DNA from: Nitrospinales bacterium
GTDB taxonomy: Bacteria > Nitrospinota > Nitrospinia > Nitrospinales > VA-1
DNA: 64,000 bases
Assembly (NCBI GenBank): GCA_965262115.1
Contig: OZ253496.1
Coordinates: 672,001-736,000, forward strand
Reading direction: 5' to 3'
Below, piece by piece: positions 33,880-64,000 of the stretch. Position 1 is the stretch's first letter; each line of letters opens with the position of its first letter. The translations under genes were made by a program, and so were the position numbers. The notes under the pieces are model-generated. The model was not told the DNA's origin. It saw only the letters and a list, made by a program, of their open reading frames with translations, and searched no databases.

Positions 33880-33976
33880 AACTTGGGCCAACCCTCCCTC
33901 AAGCCGAGACAATCTATTGTTTGCTAGATAAAGTTATTGCAATTTGAGTCCAGCGCCACGCTGGTGCGCCGAGCAC

Positions 33977-45604: not shown

Positions 45605-45625
45605 GCACCCATTCCCATGAGAGGG

Positions 45626-62051: not shown

Positions 62052-62206
62052 TAAAGCACGTAAAAACGGGATTTAACTAAATTTAATTATTCACTATATA
62101 ATAAGTATCTGTGAAAGGCGAATTTTTGCATAGTCGCCCAACAAAATCAAGGGATTTCAAGCAACCTAAACGAACAAATATAGTGAAAAAACAACCCACC
62201 ATCAAG

Positions 62207-63355
62207 ATGAAACCCGACTCCGACCTTTTCCAGCACCTGTCATGGGCCGGTTTATATGGCGCGGTTTTACTGCTGTCGGCCTGCGACTTTCCACAGCCGC
62301 CGCCGGACTTGTTCTACAAATTCGATGTCATGCCGGTGGGTCAGGGCCCGGCCCATCTATTGACCGCCGATTTAAATCTGGACGGAGAACCGGATCTGGT
62401 TTCCACCAACGCCAAGAACGGCACTCTCACCCTCCTATACGGAAAAGGCGACGGCAGTTTTCATGCAGGTCTAACTATAAACGTCGCCGCCGAACCAACT
62501 ATGTCAGCGGTGGGAGATTTTAATAAAGATGGAGTCCCTGATATTGCGATCAACTCCCGAGGAACAGGAAGGTTTTTAGTTTTTCTGGGAAAAGGAAACG
62601 GCAAATTCATGAAACCCATCCCCACGCGAACCGGCAAAGTCCCTTTAAACATTATTCTCGGTGACTACAACCAGGACGGCAACCTGGATGCCGCCGTCAC
62701 CCTGACCTTTGACGAAATGGAATTGTATCTTGGCACCGGAGACGGTCATTTTAAAAAAGGCGAAACCTATCTGACCGGTTCCCGATCCTTTTCCGGAGTG
62801 ACAGAAGACTTCAATGAGGACGGGCACCTCGACATTGCCCTCGCGGCCAGCAGTTCCAGCGCCAGTTCTGTCCGGTTGTTTATCGGGAACGGCGATGGAA
62901 CTTTTCAGAAACCTAAACGGCTGGCAGAAAAGCTGGTGCCGCTAGCCATCGTGGCTAGTGACATGAATGATGACGGTAGAACCGACCTGGTGTTTGCCGC
63001 AGGTCAGGGAGACAATTTATACTTGCTCACTTCAAACGGAGACGGCAGTTTCAAAGAACCCATTGCCTTTTCCGGCGGGGGTGGACCCTTTGCTCTCATT
63101 ACGGGGCATTTTGATCCGGACAAGTTGAAGGATGTTGCGGTCGCCAATTCCCGATCCAGTACTTTCTCGATTATTGTCCGCAATGCCAACGGAACATTTA
63201 AATTCCCCACCCGGGATTATGTGATCGAAGGCGGCACCGTATTAGCCATTACCAGCGGCGATTATAACCACAGTGGCATGAGCGATATTGTCGTGGCCAG
63301 CAATGCTAAGCACACCATCGAAATTTATTTACAACGGCGGATATTTGCTCCTTAA
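62207..63355 (+). CDS. FG-GAP/VCBS-repeat lipoprotein
   Basis: Lipobox LSAC; repeated DxNxDGxxD...GxGDGxF units. Confidence 0.88.
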   Translation: MKPDSDLFQHLSWAGLYGAVLLLSACDFPQPPPDLFYKFDVMPVGQGPAHLLTADLNLDGEPDLVSTNAKNGTLTLLYGKGDGSFHAGLTINVAAEPTMSAVGDFNKDGVPDIAINSRGTGRFLVFLGKGNGKFMKPIPTRTGKVPLNIILGDYNQDGNLDAAVTLTFDEMELYLGTGDGHFKKGETYLTGSRSFSGVTEDFNEDGHLDIALAASSSSASSVRLFIGNGDGTFQKPKRLAEKLVPLAIVASDMNDDGRTDLVFAAGQGDNLYLLTSNGDGSFKEPIAFSGGGGPFALITGHFDPDKLKDVAVANSRSSTFSIIVRNANGTFKFPTRDYVIEGGTVLAITSGDYNHSGMSDIVVASNAKHTIEIYLQRRIFAP

Positions 63356-63358
63356 TCC

Positions 63359-63802
63359 AACCCTCCCCTTACCCCTCCCTATGAAGGGAGGGGGATATGA
63401 AAAGTAAAAAGCGATGGCAACAATTTTCAACAAGAATACAGAAAAGGCTAAAAGAAAATCTTTGCGCAAAGAAATGCCACCTGCAGAGGTCACTTTATGG
63501 CAAGTTTTGCGAAACAAGCAAGCTAATGGACATAAATTTCGGCGACAATACAGTGTTGACCAATACATTCTGGATTTTTATTGCCCCTCGGCAAAACTCG
63601 CGATTGAAATCGATGGAGATTCTCATTTCAGTGACACAGCAATTCAATCGGATGAAATCCGTCAGAAGGCCATCGAAGATATGGGAATACAAATTCTGCG
63701 TTTTACCAATCAGGATATCTATGAAAACTTGGATGAAGTATTTGAGAAGATTTTAAAACATTTACCTCCCCTCCCTTCATAGGGAGGGGGCGAGGGAGGG
63801 TT
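63359..63802 (+). mobile_element. 444-bp cassette: DUF559 gene bounded by 35-bp inverted hairpin repeats
   Basis: 63359-63393 versus rc 63768-63802, 31/35 identical; each contains CCCCTCCCT-ATGA-AGGGAGGGG. Confidence 0.65.
63414..63782 (+). CDS. DUF559 (Vsr-like) endonuclease domain protein
   Basis: LRKEMPPAEVTLW...KFRRQ...YILDFYC...IEIDGDSH...D..R...LRFTN. Confidence 0.92.
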   Translation: MATIFNKNTEKAKRKSLRKEMPPAEVTLWQVLRNKQANGHKFRRQYSVDQYILDFYCPSAKLAIEIDGDSHFSDTAIQSDEIRQKAIEDMGIQILRFTNQDIYENLDEVFEKILKHLPPLPS

Positions 63803-63821
63803 TGCCATTATCTGGATACGG

Positions 63822-64000
63822 TTATCCGTATGAGTGGTCTAAAACTCTTCGTTCTTCATCCAGGTGTTTAATAAATTCTTTCCCCTTTTGTTCCATATTC
63901 GTAACCAACTTAAATATTTCTTCCAAATGCCCACTATTAACGAGTTGTTCATCAGGAATAGATAATAGAATTTCATAGACTCGACTTGCACGAGCAATGA
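63822..64000 (-). CDS. 3' end of a hypothetical protein entering from the window edge
   Basis: Open frame IARASRVYEILL...HLDEERRVLDHSYG* ending at TAA 63822-24. Confidence 0.5.
   Translation of the reverse strand, partial: IARASRVYEILLSIPDEQLVNSGHLEEIFKLVTNMEQKGKEFIKHLDEERRVLDHSYG

Follow-up and report, generated by a model that had tools for sequence, protein, structure and literature searches.

A DUF559 Nuclease Gene between Two Predicted Intrastrand-Triplex Repeats as a Multi-Copy Mobile Unit in a Nitrospinales Genome

The stretch of DNA analyzed here (the window) comprises 64,000 nucleotides of a Nitrospinales bacterium (assembly GCA_965262115.1, contig OZ253496.1, positions 672,001 to 736,000). 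Close to its right end, a gene of the DUF559 nuclease family with Vsr fold lies between two inverted, structured repeats, referred to as arms in the following (Table 1). The arms (63359–63393 and 63768–63802) are identical in 31 of 35 nt (89 %); 150 random tiles of the genome, each 560 nt long, contained no 35-nt inverted match better than 22/35. The left arm consists of an 8-nt C-rich tail (63361–63368), a 3-nt linker and a hairpin (63372–63393). For both arms, folding predicts a 9-bp stem with a 4-nt loop, that is, the hairpin only. The TAG stop codon of the nuclease open reading frame (ORF) at 63780–63782 is located inside the right hairpin, and the TAA of the upstream FG-GAP gene provides the first 3 nt of the unit. 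For the convergent 85-aa ORF no Pfam family was found above cut-off. A promoter and terminator scan gave chance level and no terminator-like site. An earlier interpretation of the window from its letters alone (the sequence-only reading) had described an intact 122-aa Vsr-like gene between convergent neighbours, bounded by 35-bp inverted repeats with such stems and loops, and with its stop codon in the right hairpin. This description could be reproduced in full.

Table 1. Features of the unit, its neighbours and related repeats, in window positions.
Feature	Position	Strand	Remarks
DUF559/Vsr-fold nuclease gene, 122 aa	63414–63782	+	PF04480 match, conserved residues; stop inside right hairpin
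Left arm of unit	63353–63393	+	outer end, C-rich tail, linker, hairpin
Right arm of unit, inverted copy	63768–63802	−	hairpin 63768–63789, linker 63790–63792, third strand 63793–63800
Upstream host gene, FG-GAP repeats	62111–63355	+	conserved in genus
Convergent 85-aa ORF, 3′ part	63822–64000	−	starts beyond window; end at 63822
Gene-less tail-to-tail doublet	24529–24619		truncated arm of the unit's subtype and intact second-subtype arm
Multi-copy insertion sequence	23241–24529		inserted into hairpin of the doublet's first arm
Tail-only arm fragment, 15 nt, without hairpin	33887–33901	+	local alignment

The window protein matches the profile PF04480 with 108.5 bits (cut-off 20.6; E 2e-31) over profile positions 4–108 of 109, and its AlphaFold model has a mean confidence (predicted local distance difference test, pLDDT) of 88.5. 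Fold matches were obtained with Neisseria NGO0050 (3HRL, E 4e-8) and the catalytic domain of I-Bth0305I (3R3P, E 9e-4); Vsr itself matched more weakly. The residues E25, D54, E65, D67, H71, D80 and R83 are conserved in 99–100 % of 153 relatives. By order and spacing, not by superposition, E25/D54/H71/D80 fit the EDxHD motif as it is given in parts of PMC3239194. Because neither a separate DNA-binding domain nor an HUH or DDE signature was found in it, the modelled protein resembles enzymes that nick or cut DNA and not those that transfer strands. For the Caulobacter protein VsrA, which also carries DUF559, DNA damage in vivo is reported (PMC12907096). Among named sequences, the nearest relatives of the window protein are from Nitrospinota genomes, and few DUF559 relatives occur on plasmids (43 records) and phages (2 records).

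In each arm, the pyrimidine stem of the hairpin is mirrored by the C-rich tail that lies outside it. This allows 8/8 purine-motif triads on the G-rich (−) strand of the left arm and 7/8 on the + strand of the right arm. A perfect 7/7 mirror between tail and stem at a 3-nt linker was found in 46 of 124 distinct arms (108 loci), compared to 9.3±2.5 (maximum 16) with permuted tails and 4 in the same-direction control. In this set a stem T corresponds to T or A in the tail, as permitted in the purine motif. In the source genome (G000; 2.68 Mb in one contig with coordinates C1, 93.9 % complete) 71 strict motifs were counted, and no such motif occurs in three shuffled versions of it or in its reversed sequence. 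These motifs share their features with the BoxC/PIT/TM repeats as described in portions of PMC4666352: pyrimidine stem, loop, purine stem, a 3-nt linker and a mirror third strand on the G-rich strand, with G-G-C and A/T-A-T triads, dispersed and over-represented as singles and inverted doublets (22 doublets here) in variable intergenic regions. Judged by these features, the unit arms belong to the BoxC/PIT/TM intrastrand-triplex motif, with the triplex itself being predicted. The sequence-only reading had taken the arms for a hairpin family of the nuclease's own and had overlooked their mirror symmetry. According to the same portions of PMC4666352, knowledge of BoxC/PIT/TM repeats dates back to the 1990s; they occur in hundreds of genomes, where they mark unstable regions of raised variability free of nearby transposase or integrase remnants, and no function or mobilising enzyme is known for them. 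A single strand forms the triplex in vitro (Holder et al. 2015, PMC4666352). The words ycjD, endonuclease and nuclease are absent from the main text of that paper.

Five gene-bearing units of the window clade occur at unrelated sites of the source genome, with ORFs 81–100 % identical in amino acids to the window copy. The four copies elsewhere were not part of the sequence-only reading. Besides fragments, the genome has two more full-length DUF559 genes, whose arms are different, resulting in seven full-length genes of four sequence groups. Two of the units are identical over 457 bp, and their identity ends at most 4 nt from the outer ends of the arms. A comparison of 12 ORFs from five genomes gave identities of 100 % and 97.8 % (source genome), 98.6 % (G013) and 95.1 % (G019) for pairs located at different sites of one genome. 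In comparison, the copies of the source genome and G019 at one shared site are 85.2 % identical, between flanks of about 93 %. Since copies within one genome (95–100 %) are often more alike than those at the same site, we conclude from these alignments that copying between sites happened repeatedly and recently. Copies at different sites share between 4 and about 75 nt of flank that was copied along beyond the arms, and one site seems to have had its copy exchanged for a paralogue. No target-site duplication was evident at 14 units, where adjacent direct repeats showed no excess (mean 2.21 vs. 2.16 permuted). The ratio of nonsynonymous to synonymous substitution rates (dN/dS) of the unit ORFs was 0.10–0.18 in 8 divergent pairs out of 10; it was 0.82 in a near-identical pair with few changes and undefined in the identical pair. 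Purifying selection on the DUF559 gene of the units is shown by these codon comparisons.

Behind the FG-GAP gene, the unit is absent in 13 of the 14 relatives fetched. The remaining relative (G015) carries its own copy at the window site, whose distance from the FG-GAP stop is larger by about 40 nt and whose identity of about 85 % equals that of the flanks. Taken together, dispersal and copy number in the sequences compared indicate that the window unit is a real multi-copy mobile unit rather than a vertically inherited gene. In this respect the mobile element proposed by the sequence-only reading is borne out.

The gap after the FG-GAP gene (window 63340–64000; loci L002–L015 of the relatives) is a hot spot with unrelated cargo. 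From reading of the sequences we presume this cargo to consist of small gene pairs, restriction-like ORFs and transposase pieces. Three public sequencing runs of relatives diverge from the window sequence at 63340–63346 into unlike DNA; no joint across the unit was found in the four runs compared, and no public RNA runs containing the unit are listed. In one metagenome unit of clade A (L065:205–285 and about 650–730), both arms contain an identical 39-nt mini-repeat at the same position, an insertion absent from all other loci compared. Its sequence suggests either arm-to-arm copying or homogenisation, or an assembly artefact.

To survey the flanks of the family, 80 DUF559 loci each were fetched from GTDB and from metagenomes (best matches, partly redundant), and the 77 GTDB and 61 metagenome loci with full flanks were counted. 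Of these, 61/77 and 44/61, respectively, have one or more triplex arms no further than 200 nt from the gene, where 0.03 would be expected, and arms on both sides occur in 34 and 22. Inward-pointing tails were found in 24 GTDB and 17 metagenome loci, outward-pointing ones, as in the window unit, in 6 and 2. In 20 Y1 loci, fetched from 59 matches, no triplex arm was found beside the gene. The pairing of DUF559 and arm is seen in at least ten phyla, which differ in their sets of transposases. Five DUF559 groups can be distinguished within the genus, each with an arm subtype of its own. The arm subtype is common to 61–100 % of protein pairs with at least 70 % identity and to less than 10 % of pairs below 60 %. 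Genus genomes with at least ten hairpins of the window unit's exact subtype contained the matching gene clade in 4/7 cases, those with fewer hairpins in 1/16. The surveyed loci support a gene–repeat pairing that is family-wide and clade-specific. Two further contexts of the domain were observed. In G006 (L021:841–2622) a DUF559 domain with flanking GC-rich hairpins lies in frame inside a 593-aa ORF, which we take from its sequence to be similar to a type I restriction specificity subunit (HsdS), and G026 has a 1023-aa ORF containing a DUF559 domain.

DUF559 is patchily distributed and occurs in 56 of 120 Nitrospinota genomes. These were split 51/69, with five genomes of one genus, in which DUF559 is a weak domain of 306–543-aa ORFs, moved to the gene-negative group after the counts were seen. 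Genomes possessing the gene (n=51) had a median of 28.3 motif matches per Mb, those lacking it (n=69) a median of 5.6; values below 5 were found in 0/51 and 32/69 genomes, respectively. With the five genomes kept as positive, the medians were 27.5 and 6.2. Presence of Y1 also went along with a higher load over all genomes (25.6 vs. 10.5). Among the 58 genomes of at least 90 % completeness no link was left for Y1 (p 0.21), while DUF559 was still linked (28.3 vs. 7.3). Both flanking repeats at other DUF559 genes and a co-variation of gene and repeat abundance, which the sequence-only reading had suggested to look for, were thus found. A very high triplex-motif load of about 200–390 raw matches per Mb was noted in G036, G039, G112, G113 and G008; in G113, a 430-contig assembly, there was no DUF559 match at E 1e-15.

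A comparable neighbourhood exists in E. coli. In K-12 the DUF559 gene ycjD is located 168 nt from a BoxC motif, one of the 23 E. coli motifs in the part of PMC4666352 considered, and in another strain a BoxC motif overlaps the 3′ end of ycjD. Of 12 strains compared, the six with ycjD have 16–31 motifs and the six lacking it at fabI have 1, 1, 2, 7, 11 and 18, a pattern that follows phylogroup in this small sample. The two motif-richest strains of the latter set (11 and 18) show no DUF559 match anywhere. E. coli was rejected as a clean empty-site model, as three ycjD-negative strains carry an efflux locus instead. At these loci downstream of fabI (L143–L145) a TetR regulator and efflux genes of the resistance–nodulation–division (RND) type lie at the same breakpoint, and in the records aligned the site has two alternative occupants, ycjD or the efflux locus.

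The three gene-less relatives that had been proposed within the window fared differently. The doublet at 24529–24619 is real: its truncated arm (24529–24552) matches the left arm of the unit in 22 of 24 nt, followed by a second-subtype hairpin at 24598–24619, and it is one of the 22 such doublets in the source genome. Near 33888 the match of the 15-nt tail stood and no hairpin was found, and the position near 45608 was rejected, its local alignment to both arm types being below threshold. The 45 classified arms of the window subtype in the source genome are distributed over units (9), doublets (22) and solo sites (14). In the doublets, two arm subtypes are joined tail to tail. The most frequent gene-bearing form of the relatives has the same arm order, and the doublets therefore look as if they had arisen from it by internal deletion. 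Most arms of the second subtype (e.g. window 24568–24619) have, in place of the 3-nt linker, 14 nt that contain a small hairpin; the plain linker occurs in three copies, and the mirror third strand is retained.

Arms are also struck by other elements. The insertion sequence next to the doublet (Table 1), which we assume from its ORF to be of IS3 type, has further copies, several of them likewise in or adjoining repeats. A miniature inverted-repeat transposable element (MITE) occurs at about 55 sites (e.g. C1:2054852–2055024), with 100–350 bp, conserved inverted ends and 8–11-nt target duplications. Hairpins, triplex arms among them, are frequent insertion sites of the MITE, and triplex doublets or another repeat family are found within it. 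Two MITE ends (about 131–133 kb and 205 kb) have DDE_Tnp_1 remnants close by. None of the five gene-bearing units is bounded by MITE ends. IS110 (PF01548 and PF02371) is located just beyond the window at C1:736439–737700 and at about 21 other sites. Its start resembles a hairpin mini-repeat of about 40 nt, after which varying right halves of the mini-repeat follow, so that by sequence IS110 either inserts into the mini-repeat or is the enzyme moving it. The multi-copy IS ends examined differ from the arms, in a search that covered part of the transposase families. Large low-complexity tandem repeat blocks were noted near the contig start (C1:6563–35797).

As the best explanation of these observations, we consider it moderately probable that the nuclease drives the spread of the unit by nick-and-copy at the folded arm. 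The unit of about 455 bp, a Vsr-fold nuclease gene between two predicted intrastrand-triplex repeats at five scattered sites, would act as follows. An arm would fold as a triplex when transiently single-stranded, e.g. at the replication fork, and the nuclease would recognise the folded arm and nick beside it. Host recombination would then repair the break from another arm-bearing site and copy the unit together with its arms, so that the spread would be a homing-like conversion rather than cut-and-paste. Some gene-less arms of the source genome were probably multiplied by the unrelated MITE instead. Nick-and-copy fits because target duplications are lacking, the co-copied flanks vary, one copy appears to be replaced by a paralogue and the twin insertion of L065 may reflect arm-to-arm copying. 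More generally, with confidence slightly above an even balance, we suggest that DUF559/ycjD nucleases are the cognate enzymes of BoxC/PIT repeats. Gene and arms would then represent a new, very small class of mobile DNA without transposase or recombinase, whose ends are read as a three-stranded structure, active in Nitrospina-type genomes and quiescent (RAYT-like, as for the REP-associated tyrosine transposases) in E. coli.

Several findings weigh against this explanation. The identical pair may be the result of conversion between two older copies, and it shares a faint 20-nt left flank with other copies; even in this case the dispersal of the units itself still requires movement. In three multi-copy genomes of other phyla, copies within a genome are only 69–79 % alike, and no recent duplicates above 80 % were found. 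The empty sites in relatives that the sequence-only reading had called for were not recovered cleanly: no clean pair of filled and empty sites was obtained for the window copy, the 1.59-Mb copy or other DUF559 clades, and 39 solo-arm sites from three relatives gave no base-resolved junction. This is because intergenic regions turn over as blocks, and the unit ends and the cut site are therefore undefined. In double-stranded DNA Holder et al. observed no stable triplex, nor did their footprinting in vivo reveal one (PMC4666352). The outward tails of the window unit differ from the inward orientation of most relatives (6 vs. 24). Three genus genomes, fragmented assemblies, contain 10–25 arms of the window subtype without the matching gene clade, and seven genomes of at least 90 % completeness exceed 15 motif matches per Mb without a DUF559 gene. 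The gene–motif correlations are confounded by kinship, the general load of mobile DNA and the arms of the units themselves, and the motif matches counted overlap. In E. coli a strain without a DUF559 gene keeps its 18 motifs, and ycjD is present in 3378 of 5426 genomes, single-copy in nearly all and, among the records listed, at the fabI–sapF site.

The same weighing applies to the resident transposases. The source genome has about 22 IS110 copies and other active transposases. MITE sequence is found in 17 of the 22 gene-less doublets, in six of them with both MITE ends, and 41 of 55 MITE copies are flanked by direct repeats of at least 8 nt (a count without control); a DDE transposase therefore probably multiplied many of these doublets. 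For the proposal that a nuclease instead of a transposase propagates the repeats this means a divided outcome. The repeat load follows the gene, and no Y1/RAYT gene was found in the one-contig, 93.9 % complete source genome; about half of the gene-less arms, in contrast, belong to the doublets with MITE sequence. On this basis the unit could be cargo: the DDE enzyme of the MITE or IS110 would move arms and gene, gene conversion would homogenise the copies, and the nuclease would be a passenger that a defence or addiction effect may help to retain, with the gene–repeat link as inherited linkage. The doublets inside a target-duplicating MITE, the repeated insertion of MITE, IS3-type element and mini-repeat into arms, and the position of the units in intergenic hot spots that harbour further small cargo genes as well are in accordance with this. 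We nevertheless regard it as unlikely, since none of the five units has MITE ends or a target duplication, the pairing extends over phyla that differ in their transposases, and Y1 genes show no arm pairing. Further, the triplex geometry is kept while the arm sequence changes, and the active-site residues are near-invariant.

A domesticated host enzyme, comparable to a non-jumping RAYT or a solitary Vsr, was considered as well. It would resolve triplex or mismatch lesions or maintain the repeats, and the extra copies would be incidental duplications. Such a role would suit the single-copy ycjD beside a BoxC motif and the fact that some unit sites are common to relatives. For Caulobacter VsrA, the accessible part of PMC12907096 describes an SOS response upon loss of a cytosine methylase and proposes a repair enzyme. 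The source genome has three C5-methylase matches (PF00145), but the nearest of them lies at least 23 kb from any of the seven DUF559 genes and hence from all units. Seven full-length genes of four groups in one 2.7-Mb genome, their repeated recent copying, the patchy presence among Nitrospinota and the in-frame insertion inside the HsdS-like ORF make an enzyme of this kind rather improbable. An ordinary vertical gene placed by chance beside two terminator-like hairpins, to which the copy of G015 with its flank-like identity of about 85 % could point, is hardly credible in view of five copies, the absence in closer relatives, an inverted match far beyond chance, the lack of a terminator-like site and the family-wide pairing.

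To our knowledge, DUF559, which includes E. coli ycjD, is a common family without assigned function. No description of a pairing of DUF559 with triplex repeats was found in the literature searched, to which most subscription journals do not belong. The nuclease-plus-triplex system is undescribed in this searchable literature, and its arm represents a known but unexplained class of repeats. Once DUF559 and BoxC/PIT/TM are brought together, both questions can be tested using one small protein and one 35-nt oligonucleotide. If nick-and-copy by the nuclease is true, intrastrand triplex DNA would gain a role in nature, a second class of enzymes would do for its repeats what RAYT does for the repetitive extragenic palindromic (REP) sequences, and the nuclease might be a structure-specific nickase. 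The source genome contributes the evidence of recent activity in the form of 95–100 % identical copies at different sites. New in its analysis are the recent self-copying, the covariation test and the gene–motif correlation with the Y1 control.

Among known systems, the REPtrons and TIRtrons (REP/REPIN with RAYT) show broad similarity, as far as they are covered by the sections of bioRxiv 10.1101/2021.07.10.451892 and PMC3733652 drawn on here. In both systems a small gene for a nuclease is flanked by structured repeats of its own, gene-less inverted doublets of about 100 bp occur, the repeat subtype matches the enzyme clade, and the repeat load tracks the presence of the enzyme. The window enzyme, however, has a PD-(D/E)XK Vsr fold and not an HUH/Y1 fold, its arm ends lack a GTAG or CGTC tag, and its arm is a predicted triplex instead of a simple hairpin. 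RAYTs are described in these sources as single-copy and non-jumping, a pattern that E. coli ycjD fits, whereas the DUF559 gene multiplies to five copies in the source genome. A Y1/RAYT enzyme as mobiliser was rejected, as the profile search of this genome gave no PF01797 and the 20 Y1 genes have no arm beside them. ISL3-type mobilisation was likewise rejected in the absence of PF01610 from the same genome and of target duplications.

With the EDxHD homing endonuclease I-Bth0305I, as presented in excerpts of PMC3239194, the window protein shares the catalytic fold (3R3P), the matching E/D/H/D residues and, in the mechanism proposed here, a cut-then-copy spread. The differences are a free-standing gene without intron or intein, a length of 122 aa compared to 266 aa without the N-terminal DNA-binding region, and a unit with flanking structured repeats at many unrelated sites instead of one cognate allele. 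Vsr and VsrA belong to the same fold family, and VsrA carries DUF559 according to the accessible part of PMC12907096; the window DUF559 gene differs in being multi-copy, bracketed by triplex arms and without a linked cytosine methylase. Similar to DDE insertion sequences, MITEs and mobile cassettes, the unit is compact with terminal inverted repeats (31/35), and some gene-less arms lie in a MITE. It differs from them in having no transposase gene, no target duplication and no fixed ends. For the BoxC/PIT/TM repeats, finally, no mobilising enzyme is named in the portions of PMC4666352 considered, whereas the motif in the window brackets a recently copied nuclease gene.

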